In this document: positions 34,112 to 54,066 of the stretch, in pieces | Position numbering within the stretch: the first letter of the stretch is position 1 | Layout: each line of letters starts with the position of its first letter | DNA from: a bacterium | GTDB taxonomy: Bacteria; Arandabacterota; Arandabacteria; Arandabacterales; Arandabacteraceae | DNA: 64,000 bases | Reading direction: 5' to 3' | NCBI GenBank assembly: GCA_029933125.1 | Contig: JAOZOU010000009.1 | Coordinates: 10,194 to 74,193 of the forward strand | Position numbers and translations under genes: made by a program | Notes under the pieces: model-generated | Databases searched by the model: none | What the model was told of the DNA's origin: nothing | The model's input: the letters and a program-made list of their open reading frames with translations, nothing else

Positions 34112-34497
34112 CTTTGCACCTCCGGAAGAAGCAAGACCATCGCCACTGCATAGTCACCATCATGGGAAATACTCAGCAATGCTTGCCTGTCACCGAGAGC
34201 ATCTTTGGCTGCACCTCGAAGATGAAGTACGGGCAAGCCCTTCTCGGTGAGCACAACTTCTATTGTGCGATGAGTGATTTTAGGAGTCTGGTGAGTTGCA
34301 AGAGCTTTGAAAAAAGCCTCTTTTGCTGCGAATCTTGCAGCCAGAGCCTCAGCAGGCACAGGGCGGGCAAGGCTGTAAGCTATTTCGCTCTGGGTGTAGA
34401 TGCGTTCGAGAAAGCGTCTTCCCCAACGATCGAGGAGGCGCCTGATGCGAGGCACTGCAACAAAGTCGATTCCTATGCCCACATGTGCATACGGCAT
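34108..34497 (-). CDS. acpS: holo-[acyl-carrier-protein] synthase
   Basis: AcpS N-terminal motif VGIGIDFVAVPRI and FAAKEAFFKA; start taken at internal Met (track start 34515 also possible). Confidence 0.85.
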   Translation of the reverse strand: MPYAHVGIGIDFVAVPRIRRLLDRWGRRFLERIYTQSEIAYSLARPVPAEALAARFAAKEAFFKALATHQTPKITHRTIEVVLTEKGLPVLHLRGAAKDALGDRQALLSISHDGDYAVAMVLLLPEVQS

Positions 34498-34678
34498 GGC
34501 ATCCTCCGCACGCAATCATATGCAAGTGGGCTTGAGGATTCAAGAAGGATATACGTTGTGATTGACCGTCTCGAAGACGCTCAGGCTGCACCCTGGCAAA
34601 ATACGGTCCTGCTTGCTTAGTTGGGTTGCTTTAGCAAACTTTCTCTCGCAACTCCTTTCACAGGGGCTAGTCTTGGAC

Positions 34679-34870
34679 CTACTTCATGGACTGGCCAATC
34701 GTCCGCCCAACGCTTATCTCACCATTGTCTATCCTGAGATTGAACCCACACTCAGGATTGGAGCATACCCAGGCCTTGTAAGTAATTGGTGCCCCTTCAC
34801 GACCGTAGTCGGAAAGAGGAATAAGGACACCATCATGACACTTCCTACATTTAGGGAATGATCCTTCCAT
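34679..34870 (-). CDS. small zinc-ribbon protein (hypothetical)
   Basis: 63-aa product from internal Met with CxxC...CxxxxC (CRKC ... CSNPEC) arrangement; weak evidence, could be longer (track 34969). Confidence 0.35.
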   Translation of the reverse strand: MEGSFPKCRKCHDGVLIPLSDYGREGAPITYKAWVCSNPECGFNLRIDNGEISVGRTIGQSMK

Positions 34871-35263
34871 TACGCTAACCTCCCATCCCTTCGCATTCAC
34901 AATACAAACCCTCCGCGGTGAAAGCCCACACAACTTTGCCGGGCCAGTCCTTGTCTTACAATATAGCACTCGCTGAGGAAGTTAGTCAAGCCATCCCATA
35001 GACTCATGAATCAATCTCGCCACCTGTTGGGATCATAAACAATTGTATTGTAGTGAACAATTGCTTCTTGGGGTGAGCTCTGTCATCCTCTTCTTCCCGA
35101 ATCCACTACACATGCATCCAAGAGTCACATTATCAACGAATGTTACGTGTGCAATAAGCAGAGCGCGCCACTTTCGCAGTGCGGAGCCTTAGTCTGGAAC
35201 TTCATAGCCACAGCGAACCACATCTCAGGTTGAGCTTAGTCTGCCAGAATCACGCTGCCGCTA

Positions 35264-35920
35264 TCATCTTTCCCTTACATTTAGACGGCACCACTCTCGT
35301 TCCCAAGCTCTCACCCTCATCCCGGCTCCCCGCAGAGGAGCAGGCAAGCGCGCATCCTTAGCCAGTGCTTTGACTATATTCTGAGCATCTTTGAAAGTCA
35401 CAAGATTACCTGCAACAACTGCAATTGGAGTGCGATGGCCTGCTATCTTGACTGGACCAGAAATCTTGATTCCATCATGCCCCTTCCTGCCCTTGAATCC
35501 TGAGCCCCTTTCACTCACACCTATTGTTGGCTTCCCAGCTATAACTCCAACATAAGCTGCAAGAGGGATCTCATCCCTTAACGATAACTCTTTCACAAGA
35601 ATCACATCAGGATTGCGTTTGAGCATCTTGAGAACATTCATTATGAGTGGGACAAAAATGGGGTTGCCAACATCCGCGTAGAGCACTCTATCGATCTCAT
35701 CTGTGGCAATTGCTTCTTCAAGCACTTGCATCTTGGGGAAGGATACCAGACAGGCAGCAGCATGAGCCTTGCCAGCCTGGAGAGTTGTCACAACATCGAC
35801 TCCCACAACTCTCCTCATGCGTTTGGGGGCTGGCTTAAACTTTAGGCGCTTTAGCACGCGCTCCCTTAACTGGCTGAATTCTGTGAGTCTTAGCTTTCGC
35901 AGTGCTTCAATCTCAACCAT
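35264..35920 (-). CDS. endonuclease V (Nfi) family homologue with divergent active-site motifs
   Basis: Aligns by eye to EndoV over full length (GVDV, PTIGV, AGHR, RLPAP blocks) but lacks the Y-I-P-G/F-R-E block; start at internal Met 35920 gives 8-bp overlap with upstream radical SAM gene. Confidence 0.5.
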   Translation of the reverse strand: MVEIEALRKLRLTEFSQLRERVLKRLKFKPAPKRMRRVVGVDVVTTLQAGKAHAAACLVSFPKMQVLEEAIATDEIDRVLYADVGNPIFVPLIMNVLKMLKRNPDVILVKELSLRDEIPLAAYVGVIAGKPTIGVSERGSGFKGRKGHDGIKISGPVKIAGHRTPIAVVAGNLVTFKDAQNIVKALAKDARLPAPLRGAGMRVRAWEREWCRLNVRER

Positions 35921-45885: not shown

Positions 45886-47674
45886 CTATCTTCCTCCTCG
45901 CCTCACCTGCCGCAACACTTTCGGGAAAGCGCAGAATAAGATCCTCATATGTCTCCTTCGCCTTTTCAATCTCATCAAGCTCAACATAGATGTCAGCAAT
46001 TGCCTCAAGTGCAGCTGGTGCTATATGACTTGCGAGGCTGTCAGCTATTACTCTGTAGATCGCGATCGCCAGGTTGGGGTTACCAGCCCTACGATAGATC
46101 TCAGCTAGTCTTCTCAGACTTTCAACCTTGATAGGTTTCAATTGAATCTTGCTAAGACTAAGATATCTATCCTTTGCCTCCTCGATGCGTCCCCGCCTCT
46201 CGAGAAGATAAGCCTGCGCGAGTTGTCCAAGCTCCTGGGGGTACTTCTCGCCAGCCTTGCTTGCCCTTATCAGCATCAGCCTTTCAATGCAGTCGTTGGC
46301 AAGATCCTCCTGGGGATATTGCCTCAAAGCGACATTGTAATAGGATACTGCTTCATCAAACTTTCCCTCATACAAACTTATCTCGCCAAGATTGTAGAAT
46401 GCCTCCTGAGCAAGTGCGCCTTGCCATTCAATCTCAACAAGATCATATGTCTCGAAAGCTTTCTCAAGATCACCAAGTTTTACAAGGCAGTCCCCTTTGA
46501 TATTGACAGCCCTCGCAAGCAACTCAGGTGATCTGGTATTGCTTATAACCTTATCAGCCTCCTTAACTGCATTTTGAAAATTGTCACTGTTGTAATAGAT
46601 ATCAGCGCGAGCAAGCACAGCATCCCATGCCCACTTGGTTCCCACAAAACGGTCTACCAGATCTTGATACGTCTTCAAGGCGTCCTCAACATCATTGCCA
46701 AGGTACTCACATTGCGCTTTCTTGAGAAGAACATCAGCCAGATTTAGGCCGGATTGCTTAAGCTTTGCAACCAGTTCATATGCCTTAGCACACTCCTCAA
46801 AACAGCCTCTCCTCGTTGCCTCTCGAGCAAACAGGGGCAGACTGCGCGCTAACTCGCGTTCGTTGCCAGCGCCGGCTTGGATCTCCTCAAGCGCAGCCTT
46901 GCAGTTGCCATCCAGAAGATAAAGTTGCCAGAGTACTCGACTGACGACGTCTGCAAATTCCTTGCGAGATTTTTCAGCAACAAGAGCACTTATGACCTCA
47001 GCCCTGGCTTCATCATCACTGGCAAGATCAAGAATCTTCTGAGCAAACCTTTGAGGTACCCCCTTCTCACCTCCTCGGTTCTCGCTTGCAAATCGCAGCA
47101 GATACTCATGGACTGCATCACCAACCCTGCCTGCGTCGATATAAAGACGAATAGCTTCAGGCCCGAAAAGGGTGGAATCCCCGGTCGCCTTCCGAGCTCT
47201 TGTGATAATATCTATCACACCTTCCCTATCCCCGATCTCCGCAAGCACATTCATTGCAAGGGTGTAAGTCCATTCCTCATCGGGTGCAGTCGAGATTATT
47301 TTCTCAAGAATCTCCATCCCCCTTTTCGTGTTACCCTTGAGGAAGCTTACAAGTGCAAGTTTTGCTTTCAGCGCATTCTCATTGGGGTGATTCTTAAGAA
47401 AAGAGGAGAGTATCTTTTCAGCCTTTGAATAGTTGTGTGTCTCTATCAGAACATCTGCGTAGACTCTGACAACCGTAGCATCATCACTTGCTTTCCTGTA
47501 AAGTGCGTCCAGCTCGGCGAGAGCCTTATCAATCTTGCCCTCAGAAAGGTACCTTCGCGCAGTTGCTAAGCTGCGATCCCTTGTCTGCGGTGTAACATCA
47601 GCCGCCAGGCAAGTCCCAACAGCAAGCAAGACAAAAGCAAATGTAAGAGTGGCACAAAACAATTTCTTCATCAC
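45851..47674 (-). CDS. TPR-repeat protein with signal peptide
   Basis: 607 aa; signal peptide MMKKLFCATLTFAFVLLAVGTCLA; multiple TPR-like helical repeats; 4-bp overlap with upstream gene. Confidence 0.7.
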   Translation of the reverse strand: MMKKLFCATLTFAFVLLAVGTCLAADVTPQTRDRSLATARRYLSEGKIDKALAELDALYRKASDDATVVRVYADVLIETHNYSKAEKILSSFLKNHPNENALKAKLALVSFLKGNTKRGMEILEKIISTAPDEEWTYTLAMNVLAEIGDREGVIDIITRARKATGDSTLFGPEAIRLYIDAGRVGDAVHEYLLRFASENRGGEKGVPQRFAQKILDLASDDEARAEVISALVAEKSRKEFADVVSRVLWQLYLLDGNCKAALEEIQAGAGNERELARSLPLFAREATRRGCFEECAKAYELVAKLKQSGLNLADVLLKKAQCEYLGNDVEDALKTYQDLVDRFVGTKWAWDAVLARADIYYNSDNFQNAVKEADKVISNTRSPELLARAVNIKGDCLVKLGDLEKAFETYDLVEIEWQGALAQEAFYNLGEISLYEGKFDEAVSYYNVALRQYPQEDLANDCIERLMLIRASKAGEKYPQELGQLAQAYLLERRGRIEEAKDRYLSLSKIQLKPIKVESLRRLAEIYRRAGNPNLAIAIYRVIADSLASHIAPAALEAIADIYVELDEIEKAKETYEDLILRFPESVAAGEARRKIDGLRSSQSSDS

Positions 47675-50600
47675 TTCGCCTCTTTCCCCGCCGCAATTGC
47701 CTCAAGGTAGGCTCTTATGAGATTCTCATATTCAGGTGGATAGTAGCCCTTCTTGCGATAGAGCATGTCCTGAAGAAACCTTTCTCTTTCCTCAAGCGAA
47801 AGCTCTGGCGGCGGTTTAATCTCATATTCTCCACCAGGTCTCGATTGACGCCTCCTCGAATAGTCTCTTCGCCTCAATGATTTTTGTGCATTGAGCAATC
47901 GGGTGAGAATCTTCTCCTGACGGCGTATTGTTTCCTCATCCACATGTTGATTCTTAAGATCATCAACAACTTTACGAGCTTCCTCTGCAAGATCGTCCAA
48001 TCTGCCAAGGATCTCACTTCGACCCCTAAGCTCCCGAGCAATATCTTCGATCCCTTTTCTCACAGTCTCCTGCTCCGCTGCAAGCCGAGCCATCTGAGCA
48101 CGCTGCTCCATAGAGAGCCCTCCCTGACTCAGATCCTGCAACTGCTGTGTCCCCATGTTGATTCCCATCTGCATGCAACACATGCTCTCAAGATTCTTGA
48201 AGGTTTCGCACAATCCACTCGGCGATGAGCAACTACTTGCCTGATCCATTGCATCCATGAGTGCTGTAACAAGCTGATTCATCTTACCCAGAGCAGCTCT
48301 ACCTTGCTGCCTGGCAAGTCCGGGCTTCTGCTGAGCAATGATTTCAGATGTACTCTCAAGATCTTTTGCTATCTGAAGAACAGCTCCGCCAAGGCGTGGA
48401 CCGATAAAGAGACTCTTGCGGGCTGCCTTGAAAATGTGATCGGCAACACGATCAAGCGCTTCCTTGTAGATAACCTCACGTCTGGCAAGATCCGAAAGCC
48501 TCTTCCCACGAGTTGTATCAATCTCAGCAAGGACCTCTTCATGGCGTTGCGATACATCTCTAAGTACATCGATGGCATTTCTGAGAGCTTCCATGAGGGC
48601 CCTCTTATCCTCACCCATAAGAGCATCGCGTGTGGTTTGAAGCATCATGGCGAGTTTAGCCATATCGACTTCAGCCTGCTTACCTTGTGCACTCGCTTCA
48701 GCCTGATTGCCAGCCTGCATCGCGGACATAGCCATTGACATCGAGCCCGAAATGTTTTGGGCCTTCAGGAATTCGCCCGCCTTGCGGATCTCTCCCTCGA
48801 GAGGATTACCCTGCTCCTTGAGAAGTTCGGCGAGCTGGTTCATCATCTCCTCAAGCGCATTTGTCTTATCAATTAGAGCCTTCTCCTTTGAAGCCGCCTC
48901 CTTAAGATCGCCACCCTCTTCAATCTTCTTGTTGAGCCCGCTCTGCTCATCTGCTATCTGCTTTGCAAGATTGGTGACGGCCTCCATCCTTTGTTGTAAT
49001 TTCATCTTCTTCAGGAGCTCAATTGTCCTATCGAGACGCCGCAGAAGATCCTCCTGAGATATGTTGAAGTTCTCCATCGCCTGTCTTATTTCCTCAGGTG
49101 AGAGCTGCTGGAGGGCTTGCTGCATCTTCTCAATAGCCTTGAGTAATTCCTCAGACGCAACCTCATTTATGAGCTGCCTCACCTCTTCCATCTTCTCAAT
49201 TATTTCAAAAGTGATGAGATTATTTTCGTTCATGCGGTTGAGTGTTTCATCGAGAGATGCTGAAATATCCTCGAGGCGATCAAGAAGTTCCTTGTGCTTC
49301 TCAAGATTCTGCTCGAGGGCTTGTTGCTCCTCCCATCCAACTTCTGACTTGCGCTTCATGTTTTCGATGAGATTGTCGATTTCCTCCTTAAGCTCGGAAG
49401 CTTCATCAGCAACCTCTTCCAGCTCACCGATATCCTGCTCCTGCTCATTCTCAATAGCCTGGTAAATCTCATGGATGGCCGGAACCTTGAATGTATGGAC
49501 ATCGCTCTTTGCATACTTGGGACCTTTGAGAGCATCGTTGTCAGCCACAGCAACCCAATAGGTCACAACGTCTCCAGGGAAAAGATTCAGTTCACTCACA
49601 TTCCAATCAAGATCTGCTCTTGCATGAGTGGTGCCTTTGAAATCGAGGGCTATGGATGAAGTCTCTGAAGGCGCAGCATAGTGAAGTCGCATCTGCGATA
49701 TGCCATAGTCATCAACAGCCACAACTGAAAGGGGGACAAGCATGTCAGCCTCAAGCATCATCTCTTCCTGCGGGCTTTCGATGCGAACGTAGGGTGGATC
49801 ATCAGGGACAACATTGATCGTGTGAGGCCCGTGGGGCTCGGAACTAAGCCCACCGGCTGCAAGGTTAATGGTGTATGATAGGTTCTCATGTATGGTCACC
49901 GAGATTGCCAGGGAGTCTTTGCGCTCGACGAGCTTCAGACGGTGCTGCTTCGGCTTGTTATCTTCTATTGTGAGCCAAGCGCTGTCAGGTTCACAATTGG
50001 CTTCAAGCAGGAATTGGACACGTGTACCATAGGGAGCAGTTATATCCCAGATTCCTTTGGGGAGGATCTGTTCATCTCTACCTGTGTAGGCTGGATAAGT
50101 GAGTTTAACTATGCCTCCGACTATTCTGGGTTTCTCATAGACTGAGATTGCATAGGTCGTACTCCTCTCATCTCCGTAAGTGACAAAGTAAGCTATGTCC
50201 CTGTCAACGCTTGGCAAGATGGTTGCGAAAACTCGCTTAGCCTTGCCCTCGGATTCAGCGAGATTCATTTCAAAGGCTGTCTCTGCACCATCTTGAAGCA
50301 TGTGAAGCGTGGCTCTTCCTGGGGTGAAGCCTGTAATCTCAGCCGAAACTGTGAGGCTATCGCCGGCAAGCATCTTGTGGTTACCAGGGCTTACCCGGAG
50401 TTCAATTCCACTTGAAGGCGTAAGAGCAAGGAAATATCCGAATCGCTCAAGGGAGTAGGAAAGAGTTGGGGAATCGTAGCTTCTCCAGGCAGCTGCAAAT
50501 GCAACTGTGGCGAGCAAGGGAATAGCCCAGAGAAGCAATCTCTTCTGACTTGCTATTACATCAATGCGCACACTTTCTATCTTCTGGTTTATATCCTCAA

Positions 50601-50991
50601 GCACTCGCTTGATGAGGATATTGGAATAGCCAAGGCGCTCACTATCAACCTCACTGAGCTCAAGAGCGGTTAAGACATCGTGCCCGATCTCTCGGAGCTC
50701 AGAAGCTATGCGAGCAGCATAGGCTTTTAGGGAATGGGAAACGGAAAAAACCCTTACCATCCCATAGACAAGCCCCGCAAATGCGCTGACTGCCGAGACA
50801 AGGGCAAGCAATCTCAACCACATCCTCGCAATTCCAAAGCCTAAGTCAAGAAAACTTGTCACAAGCCACCCGAAGCCCAAGATGGTGCAAGCGATGACAA
50901 TCGCAGTTGCAACTGCAATGAGAATGCTTTTAAGCCTGACCCTCTCAAGTCTGGAAACTATTTTCTCGATCGGTCCGTAGCGGGTTGGCAT
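47671..50991 (-). CDS. large membrane-anchored coiled-coil protein (DUF4175-like)
   Basis: 1106 aa; N-terminal TM helices, long E/K/L/Q-rich coiled-coil region, C-terminal YPPEYENLIRAYLEAIA motif; family call from memory, tentative. Confidence 0.5.
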   Translation of the reverse strand: MPTRYGPIEKIVSRLERVRLKSILIAVATAIVIACTILGFGWLVTSFLDLGFGIARMWLRLLALVSAVSAFAGLVYGMVRVFSVSHSLKAYAARIASELREIGHDVLTALELSEVDSERLGYSNILIKRVLEDINQKIESVRIDVIASQKRLLLWAIPLLATVAFAAAWRSYDSPTLSYSLERFGYFLALTPSSGIELRVSPGNHKMLAGDSLTVSAEITGFTPGRATLHMLQDGAETAFEMNLAESEGKAKRVFATILPSVDRDIAYFVTYGDERSTTYAISVYEKPRIVGGIVKLTYPAYTGRDEQILPKGIWDITAPYGTRVQFLLEANCEPDSAWLTIEDNKPKQHRLKLVERKDSLAISVTIHENLSYTINLAAGGLSSEPHGPHTINVVPDDPPYVRIESPQEEMMLEADMLVPLSVVAVDDYGISQMRLHYAAPSETSSIALDFKGTTHARADLDWNVSELNLFPGDVVTYWVAVADNDALKGPKYAKSDVHTFKVPAIHEIYQAIENEQEQDIGELEEVADEASELKEEIDNLIENMKRKSEVGWEEQQALEQNLEKHKELLDRLEDISASLDETLNRMNENNLITFEIIEKMEEVRQLINEVASEELLKAIEKMQQALQQLSPEEIRQAMENFNISQEDLLRRLDRTIELLKKMKLQQRMEAVTNLAKQIADEQSGLNKKIEEGGDLKEAASKEKALIDKTNALEEMMNQLAELLKEQGNPLEGEIRKAGEFLKAQNISGSMSMAMSAMQAGNQAEASAQGKQAEVDMAKLAMMLQTTRDALMGEDKRALMEALRNAIDVLRDVSQRHEEVLAEIDTTRGKRLSDLARREVIYKEALDRVADHIFKAARKSLFIGPRLGGAVLQIAKDLESTSEIIAQQKPGLARQQGRAALGKMNQLVTALMDAMDQASSCSSPSGLCETFKNLESMCCMQMGINMGTQQLQDLSQGGLSMEQRAQMARLAAEQETVRKGIEDIARELRGRSEILGRLDDLAEEARKVVDDLKNQHVDEETIRRQEKILTRLLNAQKSLRRRDYSRRRQSRPGGEYEIKPPPELSLEERERFLQDMLYRKKGYYPPEYENLIRAYLEAIAAGKEAK

Positions 50992-51203
50992 CGGCTACCT
51001 CTGTTGTTATATCTGGCTGCTACCGCTGTTGGCCAGCCCCTTGGGCGTGTCTATTACCAGGCCTTATAGATACCTCTCTAGCATATGTCCATTGGTCATT
51101 GAGTGCTTCATCGGTGCCACACAGGCGCACCTTAAAATTAGTGGTCTCGCATGAAATCTGTGCCCGTGCTTCACCAAACTCCTCTAAGATGCACCTAACC
51201 TAT

Positions 51204-51872
51204 CTAATGAGTGAGTGCATAGGCGACTATGTTGATTGCCATCTTCATCGCAGCTTCACGCTTCTCAGGTGGATCGTGGTGAACCTCAGCATCCTCGAGC
51301 CCACAGCCTATGTCAGTATTATACGAGTAGAAAACGACAAGCCTGCCGTTGTGGATGATACCATAACCATGCGGTGGACCGCCATGGTGCTCATGTATTT
51401 TAGGAAGTCCTGAGTTGAAGTCGTAGACCATGTGATAGATTTCATGGTCAAAAGGCAATTCAACGAGCTCGTCATCTGGGAAGACCTTGCGGATCTCACG
51501 CCGGAAATACTCATCCATACCATAGCAATCATCCGCCCACAGGAACCCTCCTGATTCAAGATAAAGCCTGAGTTTGGCAGCTTCCTCACCCGAAAATTTC
51601 ACCTTACCATGACCAGTCATGTAGATGAAGGGATAAGCGAAAAGGTGTTCGTCGAGAAGGGTTACTCGAGCCTCTTCACCAGTCGGTATTCCTAGGACCT
51701 TTTCAACCTGAGTAAGGAGATTGGGAAGCGATGTGGGATCGGTATACCAATCGCCACCACCCCGGTACTTGACCCTCGCAATTGTGAACTCGCCGGGACG
51801 GGCCTCTGCCATGGCAGCTTGAGATGTGGTGAGCAAGAGCAAGATGGCCGCTACAACGAATTTTCTTAGCAT
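51204..51872 (-). CDS. DUF4159-like exported protein
   Basis: 222 aa; signal peptide; motifs RVKYRGGGDWYTDP, FIYMTGHGKVKFSGEEAAKLRLYLESGGFLWADDCYG, HDPPEKREAAMK; tentative family assignment from memory. Confidence 0.5.
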   Translation of the reverse strand: MLRKFVVAAILLLLTTSQAAMAEARPGEFTIARVKYRGGGDWYTDPTSLPNLLTQVEKVLGIPTGEEARVTLLDEHLFAYPFIYMTGHGKVKFSGEEAAKLRLYLESGGFLWADDCYGMDEYFRREIRKVFPDDELVELPFDHEIYHMVYDFNSGLPKIHEHHGGPPHGYGIIHNGRLVVFYSYNTDIGCGLEDAEVHHDPPEKREAAMKMAINIVAYALTH

Positions 51873-51906
51873 CTGCTACAGTTAAACCCCTTAAATAGCC
51901 TACCTC

Positions 51907-51936
51907 AATATAATTTGATGTTTGGAACTAAGTCAA
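51907..51936 (-). promoter_or_regulatory. candidate sigma70-type promoter for the DUF4159 operon (TTGACT-18 nt-TATATT on reverse strand)
   Basis: Reverse-strand TTGACT (51936-51931), 18-nt spacer, TATATT (51912-51907), about 35 nt upstream of ATG 51872. Confidence 0.3.
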
Positions 51937-52865
51937 CCAGCGTGAATCCACATTGTGTCTTCCCGAATTATGAAACCCCTGAAGGAGAACAAGCGTTCCC
52001 GTGGTTGGCGTTTCGGTCCTTTCGGTGAGATTCGCTGGCTGGGGTGCGGCTGGGTGAATCAGACTTGCCGGAGGCTAGCTGGAGACCTGGGGCTTGCGGA
52101 CTGGGTGGATCAGGCTTGCTGGAGCTGCCCGGGATAAGCGGCTGAGTTACGAGGGATGCGCCTCCTATACCATTGCCGTACTGTCTTGGCTCGTCCAATT
52201 CTCCCCTTTTCGTATCTCATCCATTTTGCTGTCTCATCTCTTCCTTCCGCCTCATCTTCTCCATTCCACCCTCCCCAATATATCACCTTTTGCCTCTCGT
52301 CCTTTCTCGTGTCATCTTGCCATCCTTTATCATCTTGCCTCTCTCTGTTGTGCAAGCCAATTGTCATCCTGGCAAACTCAACTCATGGCTCCTTTCGGCC
52401 TCGTCCTTTTGCAATTGTCCTCTTGCCACGCGCCCTCCCCAGCGCCCTCCCCCCGACCTCCACGCTCTCATCCTCTTGCCCTCGTCCGACTGAGCAGTAC
52501 CAGCCTGGCTCTAATGCTTAACACCCTGGTTTGAATGGCTTAGCCAGCAATCATGAGCCAGTGCTCGCGCAATCACCATCCAGCAATTGCCACCTATGCC
52601 ATCCAAATGTAGCGAATTGGCTCCACCGCATGAATGCACCTCGCACCCCATCCGTCTTGAGAAAGCAAGAATGAGACCTGTGACAGGTTAGCGGTTAGCC
52701 AGGGTCTTGGACAGTAATCAGATTCGCAGGTGGATAACCCTTGGAAAAGCCTTAATGTCGAGCAAAAGCCATCGAATGCAATCTAAAAATTCATAACACG
52801 ATCCGGGTGGCACGGAAGGGGGGCAAGAACATGCCCTCAGCCACAGCCTAAAGCCTCCAGATAGC

Positions 52866-53177
52866 CTAAAACAGGCCCTGATCATCCTCAGTATCGAGGA
52901 GATCCATCAACTCCATGTCGATGTAATCTTCTGATTCTAAGTCCTTCTCGCTTTCCTCCAATTGATCCCTTTCATTGTAGCAATCTTCACAATAAATCTC
53001 TCCAGCCTCCTCGATCTGACAAAGTTTGCACAGTGGCACTCCACAAACACAACAGATAGAGTCGGCATCTGCTTTCGGATGAAAGTGACACTTCACGTTG
53101 CCCACCCCCTCAGGCGGTGCCACCTCGGCACCTGGTTTTCTCGCAATCCCATTAATACCAACCCCATCGCTTGTCAA
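52866..53177 (-). CDS. small B-box-type zinc-finger protein with acidic C-terminal tail
   Basis: 103 aa; CHFHP...CCVCGVPLCKLC...YCEDC cysteine/histidine arrangement; C-terminus rich in D/E. Confidence 0.5.
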   Translation of the reverse strand: MTSDGVGINGIARKPGAEVAPPEGVGNVKCHFHPKADADSICCVCGVPLCKLCQIEEAGEIYCEDCYNERDQLEESEKDLESEDYIDMELMDLLDTEDDQGLF

Positions 53178-53269
53178 GAGGAATATTTTGCTCGGTTTTG
53201 GGCTGCTTAGCGAGGCTTAGCAATCACATGGGGCGATGGGAAGGAGTCTGCGGGATTCAAAGCTCGGCC

Positions 53270-53839
53270 TCAGGCTTTTCCTGCGATGACAAGATAGTGG
53301 TAGGAGCTAATCTCGAGGTTTTTCTCTACCGAAAAGGAGGCTGCTTCTAGATATGCTGTCAGCTCATCTGGCGAGATTCTCACCCCGAGTGGTGGACCAG
53401 GGGGCCCCTCTATCTTCTTAAACTCGACTATCATGAATCTCCCAGATGGCTTGAGAATTCTCGAAACCTCTCTCACCGTTGAGATGCGATCTCCATCTTG
53501 GAGAATGTCATGGAGCACTGTGAAAGCAAGAGCAACATCGATGCTTCCGTCACTCAGGGGAATTCGCGATCTTATATCAGCGACAATTGGTATCACATTC
53601 TCAACACAATTGCGAGCCATCTTCTCCTTCAACATCCTAATTCCTTCCTCCCAGAGATCGATGGCAAATACAAGGGCACGTCCCGATAGGTTTCGAGCAA
53701 CAGCGAGTGCGTATTCTCCAACGCCGCACCCAAGATCTGCAACCTTAAGATCCTTGCCGATGGCGAGCTCGGCGAGCAAGCGCTCGGAGTCGATCAGACC
53801 AAAACTGCTTCTCCCTGCCCCTCTTGGCTTATCTTGCAT
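53270..53839 (-). CDS. class I SAM-dependent methyltransferase
   Basis: SAM-binding motif VADLGCGVGEY, motif II/III region (VDVALAFTVLHD, ILKPSGRFMIVEF); start at internal Met preferred (track 53947). Confidence 0.75.
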   Translation of the reverse strand: MQDKPRGAGRSSFGLIDSERLLAELAIGKDLKVADLGCGVGEYALAVARNLSGRALVFAIDLWEEGIRMLKEKMARNCVENVIPIVADIRSRIPLSDGSIDVALAFTVLHDILQDGDRISTVREVSRILKPSGRFMIVEFKKIEGPPGPPLGVRISPDELTAYLEAASFSVEKNLEISSYHYLVIAGKA

Positions 53840-53975
53840 GATCCGTAACCTCGGGACAATCTCACGAGGTGGTTGCCATCGCGAGATTATCTTTGTGACG
53901 CTAACGTAAACTTTTGCTTGGTGCGCGTCAATCGTTTGGAGGTACAAGGCTCAAAGCCAGAGGAGCGAGATTGCA

Positions 53976-54066
53976 GATTTTTAGCTCCGACCCCAAAATC
54001 AGCAATTTGAAGATTTTTAGCTCCGACCCCAAAATCAGCAGTTTGAAGATTTTTAGCTCCGACCCC
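53976..54066. repeat. repeat element locus 3: three tandem 36-bp units containing the same 17-19 bp core, reverse orientation
   Basis: GATTTTTAGCTCCGACCCC at 53976-53994, 54012-54030, 54048-54066 with near-identical 17-bp spacers; lies between divergent genes. Confidence 0.8.

Follow-up and report, generated by a model that had tools for sequence, protein, structure and literature searches.

Ordinary bacterial intergenic spacers are non-coding and may carry a sigma-70 promoter, which is recognized by hexamers near the consensus, a spacing of 16-18 nt, and the same position in relatives. Several other kinds of sequence described between genes can be told apart by comparable features. The rut regions of Rho-dependent terminators are stretches of about 80 nt that are C-rich, G-poor, and weakly structured, while cryptically simple sequence is built by slippage and local duplication and contains an excess of short words. 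Sponge RNAs, such as CsrB, RsmB, RsmZ, and the Hfq-titrating CrcZ, carry many repeated short motifs, which are GGA in hairpin loops for the CsrB/RsmZ type, with a promoter and terminator of its own, and (ARN)n triplet runs for CrcZ. Insertion sequences and MITEs are recognized by terminal inverted repeats, target-site duplications, other copies, or the remnant of a transposase, whereas genes and recent pseudogenes can be detected via homologues, codon usage, and 3-base periodicity.

Here we report the analysis of a 993-nt intergenic gap in a 64-kb stretch of bacterial DNA, hereafter the window. The gap (positions 51873-52865) extends from the stop codon of a small B-box-like zinc-finger gene (52866-52868, minus strand) to the ATG of a gene encoding a DUF4159 protein (51872-51870, minus strand; Pfam PF13709, E = 1e-67), a domain for which a literature search returned only the Pfam paper. 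In an earlier note on this DNA, the gap was described as an unusually long region of about 1 kb without a convincing coding frame, with a strong C+T bias on the plus strand at about 52190-52500 and an imperfect direct repeat of about 22 bp at about 52040-52125. A non-coding RNA, a decayed gene, and a regulatory region were offered as explanations, to be checked by a covariance-model scan, a six-frame homology search for pseudogene remnants, and comparative alignment. As result of these and other analyses, we found that the gap is non-coding, promoter-bearing, internally repetitive, and absent from relatives. The reading that we favor, with somewhat better than even confidence, is that it represents neutral, lineage-specific non-coding DNA, built by slippage or duplication between two separately promoted genes. 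The gap is real, and the feature itself is probably of an ordinary kind.

Spacer length, composition, and promoters in the source genome and its relatives

Both the unusual length and the pyrimidine bias reported in the earlier note were borne out. The other ORF-free stretches between large genes of the window measure 177-376 nt, with the partly checked gap at 34112-35912 left out of this comparison. The C+T content of the plus strand reaches 0.763 over the 300 nt at 52184-52483, which is the highest value in the window (mean 0.519, sd 0.047), and two 100-nt windows, with starts at 52200 and 52250, rise to 0.81-0.82. Read on the gene-sense (minus) strand, the zinc-finger stop codon is followed by a segment of mixed composition (about 365 nt; 52865-52501), a segment with 73% purine (about 350 nt; 52500-52150), a C-rich segment (about 160 nt; 52150-51990), and the promoter. 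The features of the gap are collected in Table 1.

Table 1. Features identified within the intergenic gap between the zinc-finger and DUF4159 genes (window coordinates)
Feature	Position	Strand	Remarks
Predicted short leader of the DUF4159 mRNA	51873..51906	-	Starts just past the -10 box and ends at the ATG (51872); alignable with L001 and L082; putative transcription start
Predicted sigma-70-type promoter of the DUF4159 operon	51907..51936	-	TTGACT-N18-TATATT; 10/12 positions match
C-rich, G-poor zone on the gene-sense strand	51990..52150	-	Holds the 51-nt duplication; possible Rho-loading (rut-like) stretch
Direct repeat, copy 1	52050..52073		CTGGGTGAATCAGACTTGCCGGAG; repeat family D3
Direct repeat, copy 2	52101..52124		CTGGGTGGATCAGGCTTGCTGGAG; 88% identical to copy 1
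146-aa ORF	52094..52534	+	Kept as a predicted protein in public data; singleton cluster in a 15-billion-protein collection, from an 89,073-bp contig
Strand-skewed low-complexity tract	52150..52500		C+T-rich on plus strand, 73% purine on minus strand; cryptically repetitive, unstructured as RNA
Four exact GGCAAGAKGA boxes	52312-21, 52330-39, 52418-27, 52471-80	-	Plus a variant at 52362-74; repeat family D1
Unique mixed-composition sequence directly after the zinc-finger stop	52501..52865		Without homology to anything searched; one weak terminator-like hairpin

The DUF4159 protein of the source, an uncultivated bacterium, was used as a query and retrieved 160 loci from genomes and metagenomes. 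The nearest of them belong to two metagenome-assembled genomes, L001 and L082, with 87% and 86% DUF4159 protein identity, respectively, and somewhat more distant ones are labelled Candidatus Eisenbacteria. In 24 loci the order of the zinc-finger gene, the DUF4159 gene, and a gene of about 1100 aa is kept, and in all 24 the zinc-finger/DUF4159 spacer is 87-299 nt long vs. 993 nt here. The distance from the zinc-finger stop codon to the -35 box is 36-251 nt in these relatives vs. 929 nt in the source genome. None of their spacers contains a purine tract, the highest purine fraction of any 60-nt stretch being 0.45-0.65. Comparative alignment retained the promoter region and little else: by blastn, the gap DNA could be aligned with L001 and L082 only at 51889-51938 (82-84% identity over 50 nt), the remainder being absent from relatives, with a weak and uncertain similarity between 52701-52763 and the L001/L082 spacers. 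Since the spacer of relatives is short and only its promoter region aligns, approximately 700-800 nt of the gap are specific to the source lineage.

We also scanned the relatives for similar tracts. Runs of masked N in L018, L026, L031, and L065, located in or near the DUF4159 neighborhood, mimic strand skew. The real purine-rich tracts (70-72%), found in L014 and probably in the unmasked part of L018, are coding and correspond to a charged region of the large downstream gene.

Between 51700 and 53300 a single promoter-like site was detected, the minus-strand one at 51907-51936, and a relaxed scan (at least 8 of 12 positions) of both strands of the gap gave no further candidate. Its hexamers are near the consensus, its spacing falls within the usual range, and it holds the same position in relatives; both boxes are near-invariant in all 25 loci aligned. 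The alignment of these 25 loci yields the consensus GTTGACTTAG ... TTATATTGA at a threshold of at least 75% per column, and the sequence upstream of it is unalignable. Judged by this conservation, the sole conserved functional piece of the gap appears to be an ordinary promoter of the downstream gene. The regulatory region proposed in the earlier note can therefore be retained for the approximately 65 nt adjoining DUF4159, which hold the predicted sigma-70 promoter, and not for the rest of the gap.

The zinc-finger gene is preceded by a box of its own at 53150-53187 on the minus strand, AATATTCC.CTTGACAA-N9-TTGGTATTAA, which is very strongly conserved in about 24 relatives. It contains a perfect TTGACA with a TATTAA only 14 nt downstream, and because of this short distance it was not scored as a standard promoter in the consensus scan; it may be an operator or else an unusually spaced promoter. 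The TTG at 53177, listed as the start of the 103-aa zinc-finger ORF, is that of this TTGACA box, and thus the true start is probably a GTG located past the conserved GGAGGGGG, near 53105-53093, giving a protein of about 76-79 aa. With each of the two genes apparently having its own promoter, the zinc-finger gene and the DUF4159 gene would form separate transcription units, and the gap would not be a 5' leader of DUF4159.

Several observations concern the wider neighborhood. The zinc-finger gene, the DUF4159 gene, and the gene of about 1100 aa, which has no Pfam match, occupy 47671-53177 in the window and occur in this order in loci L001-L011 and L082-L094. A thioredoxin-like gene and a gene of about 1600 aa with a sensor-kinase-like product are often located just upstream. 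In the window, a class I SAM-methyltransferase gene (53270-53947, minus strand) precedes the zinc-finger gene; it is absent from L001 and L082, where the thioredoxin-like and zinc-finger genes are direct neighbors, in this order. By this comparison the methyltransferase gene appears to be a second insertion specific to the lineage, next to the zinc-finger gene, and the neighborhood has evidently seen more than one gain or loss of DNA. A 36-nt tandem repeat (53971-54066; 2.7 copies, 96% identity; TTGAAGATTTTTAGCTCCGACCCCAAAATCAGCAAT) is located between the divergently oriented methyltransferase and thioredoxin-like genes.

Coding potential of the gap

All ORFs of the gap are short and mutually overlapping, with low-complexity products. 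Their codon usage was evaluated by a log-likelihood score trained on 37 long ORFs of the window, in which real genes have an in-frame mean of +0.177 per codon (sd 0.075) and an off-frame mean of -0.239. The three long plus-strand ORFs (146, 121, and 106 aa) score from -0.17 to -0.19 per codon. These three frames are open at once because the pyrimidine-rich strand is poor in stop codons. The spectral power at period 3 is 1.00 times the background in the tract and 0.57 times in the whole gap, as compared with 3.3-9.4 times in the neighboring genes.

Homology searches agreed with this picture. No Pfam match was found in five gap ORFs. A six-frame protein query, made by concatenating every open piece of at least 30 aa, gave no match at E up to 0.1 against 5.8 billion clusters (8000 word-sharing candidates), an exhaustive phmmer search of the best minus-strand frame against 1.84 billion representatives gave zero matches, and tblastx of the gap against the 161 related loci and the window returned chance matches only. 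The absence of a convincing coding frame claimed in the earlier note was thus confirmed by codon scores, period-3 power, Pfam, and six-frame homology, and no pseudogene remnant could be recognized by a homologue in any frame.

That the 146-aa plus-strand ORF or another ORF of the gap is a real orphan gene is hardly credible. The 146-aa frame is the longest of the gap and has been deposited as a predicted protein. Its score of -0.172 per codon, however, is that of an off-frame reading, its S-, L-, and P-rich product is of low complexity, it forms a cluster of its own without homologues or Pfam matches, and no promoter lies upstream of it on the plus strand; the simultaneous opening of three overlapping plus-strand frames is itself the signature of a stop-poor pyrimidine-rich strand. 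Exact-protein look-ups for this ORF and for the zinc-finger protein found nothing on record. We conclude that the 146-aa ORF is most likely a spurious call and a compositional artefact.

The minus strand deserves closer consideration, since the purine-rich strand is the sense strand of the flanking genes, as would be the case for a coding strand rich in E, K, R, G, and D codons. In its frame -0, the stretch 52236-52475 reaches +0.131 per codon, a score at the 27th percentile for windows of real genes. G is more frequent at codon position 1 (0.49) than at positions 2 (0.36) and 3 (0.42), and half of the offsets between shared 7-mers are multiples of 3. Together with the 70-72% purine coding tracts in operon genes of relatives (L014 and probably L018, where masked N inflates the skew) and the indel-prone neighborhood, in which the nearby methyltransferase gene is absent from the closest relatives, these features are consistent with the gap being an eroded, functionless remnant of a minus-strand gene or foreign insert that might once have encoded a highly charged low-complexity protein and now holds stops and frameshifts. 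Against this reading, the period-3 power of the tract equals the background, and the six-frame, phmmer, and tblastx searches described above were all empty. The codon score itself was reached by 3.2% of dinucleotide shuffles of the tract before correction for the choice of the best window, with which it becomes marginal, and frame -0 also carries a stop. We therefore regard an eroded gene as unlikely, and from the decayed-gene option of the earlier note there remains the weak codon-usage signal of one minus-strand frame, set against the lack of homologues and of 3-base periodicity.

Repeats, RNA tests, and integrity of the sequence

The direct repeat proposed in the earlier note was confirmed and could be defined as a 24-nt pair, with 21 of 24 bases identical at a spacing of 51 nt, which extends to 33 nt at offset 51. 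Neither the 200 dinucleotide shuffles nor the 200 block shuffles produced a pair with 21 matches, the best one giving 19, and hence the repeat is beyond chance.

The tract downstream of it on the plus strand is repetitive in a more degenerate manner. It contains 21 repeated 8-mers vs. 4.3 +/- 2.5 in dinucleotide shuffles, and degenerate repeats at offsets of 12-18 nt (12, 17, and 18). The box GGCAAGAKGA has six matches in the 64 kb, where 0.73 would be expected, and four of the six fall in 170 nt inside the tract; this 10-13-nt type of box is also present there in one or two variant copies. No clean tandem array was found in the gap by Tandem Repeats Finder, which reported only two tiny arrays.

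Two further interpretations of these sequences were tried and rejected. An H-DNA or triplex mirror repeat, which requires a long unbroken run of purines or pyrimidines, does not fit, with the longest pure pyrimidine run of the gap being 13 nt, while runs of up to 21 nt occur elsewhere in the window. Likewise, in a sigma-54 reading of a TGGCA...TTGCA box, checked by hand, the spacing is 3 nt too long.

To evaluate the RNA level, the whole window was scanned with Rfam 15 (4227 models, including CsrB/Rsm, CrcZ, OLE, GOLLD, HEARO, ROOL, and riboswitches), and no match was found at the gathering thresholds. In the region 51600-53200, with E up to 10, there were four chance-level matches of 12-20 bits vs. 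cut-offs of 40-80. As a whole, the gap is less stably folded than its shuffled versions (z = +1.45 for the minus strand and +2.62 for the plus strand), none of 46 local folding tests (23 positions of 120 nt on two strands) gave a z-score below -2, and a tRNA/tmRNA scan found none. The minimum free energy of 120-nt windows in the tract is 0 to -7.5 kcal/mol. Sponge RNAs were considered individually: the CsrB/RsmZ type was rejected, with GGA not above its frequency in dinucleotide shuffles and an unstructured tract that lacks its own promoter or a convincing terminator, and so was a CrcZ-like Hfq-titrating RNA, the longest (ARN)n run being 3 triplets, a length attained by 98.7% of the shuffles, whose mean is 3.8. 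With no Rfam match, no stable fold, no promoter of its own, and no counterpart in 24 relatives, the non-coding RNA suggested in the earlier note found no support.

The same repeats allow another reading, namely that the tract is a lineage-specific regulatory nucleic acid, either an unstructured RNA or a DNA array, whose GGCAAGAKGA boxes bind or titrate a protein. The RNA would be a purine-rich long 3' tail of the zinc-finger mRNA or, if transcribed from the plus strand, pyrimidine-rich. The density of exact and variant boxes speaks for it, as does an RNA nearly free of secondary structure, which would leave the boxes accessible, and the position downstream of the strongly conserved putative promoter of the zinc-finger gene. 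The tract is nevertheless absent from all 24 relatives, lacks a promoter and terminator of its own, belongs to no Rfam family including CsrB, Rsm, and CrcZ, and shows neither GGA enrichment beyond its dinucleotide composition nor (ARN)n runs; moreover, slippage alone yields such repetition. We consider a regulatory tract improbable, and its specific form, a newly evolved element of this lineage (mRNA tail or DNA array) that couples the zinc-finger gene to the DUF4159 operon by binding or titrating a protein, distinctly improbable.

Mobile-element features were sought as well. The inverted repeats of the gap (12-17 nt, with mismatches) are at chance level by estimate; MITE-like terminal inverted repeats (12 nt, 11/12) were rejected, about one such pair being expected by chance, again as an estimate. 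The gap has no second copy in the window or in the 161 related loci, searches of plasmid and phage collections in distant mode gave no match to it, and a 30-mer from the tract had no match in viral contigs. Convincing terminal inverted repeats, other copies, and protein homology, by which an insertion sequence or MITE would be recognized, are thus all lacking.

Since the source is metagenomic, a chimeric join or a mis-assembled low-complexity stretch within the assembled genome could in principle account for part of the gap. An exact look-up of the DUF4159 protein led to a Logan contig from run SRR22355235, which is the only independent contig found and ends inside the tract at 52265, leaving the distal 600 nt to rest on one assembly. 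Against an artefact, this contig is 100% identical over 51873-52265, which makes up the initial 393 nt of the gap and takes in the 51-nt duplication as well as the beginning of the tract; the gene order is conserved, with both promoters correctly placed on either side, and the window holds no long repeat elsewhere that might have led to a false join. An assembly artefact is accordingly very unlikely.

Proposed origin of the gap and comparison with known systems

The explanation that we favor is that the short spacer found in relatives was expanded in the source lineage. In relatives, the zinc-finger gene and the DUF4159 operon would be adjacent same-strand transcription units with conserved promoters of their own, and these working parts appear unchanged here, with the DUF4159 promoter and its short leader intact. 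The C-rich, G-poor stretch at about 51990-52150, just upstream of the promoter, would have been enlarged by the 51-nt duplication. The other approximately 700 nt, including the 350-nt tract, would be neutral filler, produced by replication slippage and local duplication of short units rich in purine, and would have no protein product, structured RNA, or conserved role.

In this scenario the zinc-finger transcripts would end within the C-rich stretch or earlier, probably through Rho. The GC skew of the plus strand in 51990-52150 is +0.15 to +0.23, and on the sense strand of the spacer the C/G ratio of 78-nt windows peaks at 2.47, a value placed in this zone via the skew profile rather than by coordinates. 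The folding energy of 52000-52119 on the minus strand is -17.9 kcal/mol, which indicates modest structure, and the zone agrees with the compositional definition of rut regions given above. In the spacers of all 24 relatives, C is at least as frequent as G on the sense strand (C/G 1.0-2.1). Two terminator-like sites were found in 51700-53300, one of them in the gap (hairpin at 52676-52688, minus strand), a count not above chance. Because there is no convincing intrinsic terminator, we infer that the zinc-finger transcripts, here and in relatives, probably end by a Rho-type mechanism in C-rich sequence.

Several points weigh against a neutral origin by slippage. The closest genome available for comparison is at about 87% protein identity, the four exact copies of GGCAAGAKGA may serve for binding rather than stem from slippage, the frame at 52236-52475 has gene-like codon usage, and a second assembly covers only 393 nt of the gap. 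Absence of function is accordingly a conditional part of the proposal, as are the slippage origin and Rho-dependent termination.

If the neutral reading is correct, a striking 1-kb gap with extreme strand bias would be the single-lineage expansion of an otherwise short promoter-bearing spacer. For annotation, it matters that the 146-aa "protein" in public collections is probably spurious and that the zinc-finger ORF as listed starts within a candidate promoter box. Across this uncultivated group, the zinc-finger gene and the DUF4159 operon each appear to have a very strongly conserved promoter; these promoters represent the firmer biology of the neighborhood and would repay study more than the gap. 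Should the repeated boxes bind a factor after all, they would provide an example of the very recent birth of a regulatory element.

Comparison with known systems places the gap at different distances from each of them. With the sponge RNAs CsrB/RsmB/RsmZ and CrcZ it shares many repeated short purine-rich motifs, which would be accessible in RNA if transcribed. It differs from them in having no Rfam match, no GGA enrichment beyond composition, no hairpin-presented motifs, no (ARN)n runs, no promoter or terminator of its own, and no conservation. As in pseudogene remnants, all frames are broken and one sense-strand frame has weak gene-like codon usage; unlike them, the gap has no detectable parent gene anywhere searched and no 3-base periodicity. 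The zone at 51990-52150 resembles the rut regions of Rho-dependent terminators in being C-rich and G-poor on the sense strand and in lying 3' of a gene without a convincing intrinsic terminator, and a C content at or above that of G is also seen in the spacers of relatives. This likeness is compositional, however, and the purine-rich tract, which makes up most of the observed feature, is the opposite of rut on the sense strand.

The likeness to cryptically simple sequence is closer, comprising the excess of short words, the degenerate periodic repeats of 12-18 nt and 51 nt, the biased composition, and a position without conservation. The gap lacks a clean tandem array, and its slippage origin is putative. 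Finally, the gap is 3 to 11 times longer than in the 24 relatives, none of which has the extreme skewed tract, whereas in its other properties it matches an ordinary bacterial intergenic spacer with a sigma-70 promoter: it is non-coding, and its canonical -35 and -10 boxes lie directly upstream of the gene and are kept in relatives.
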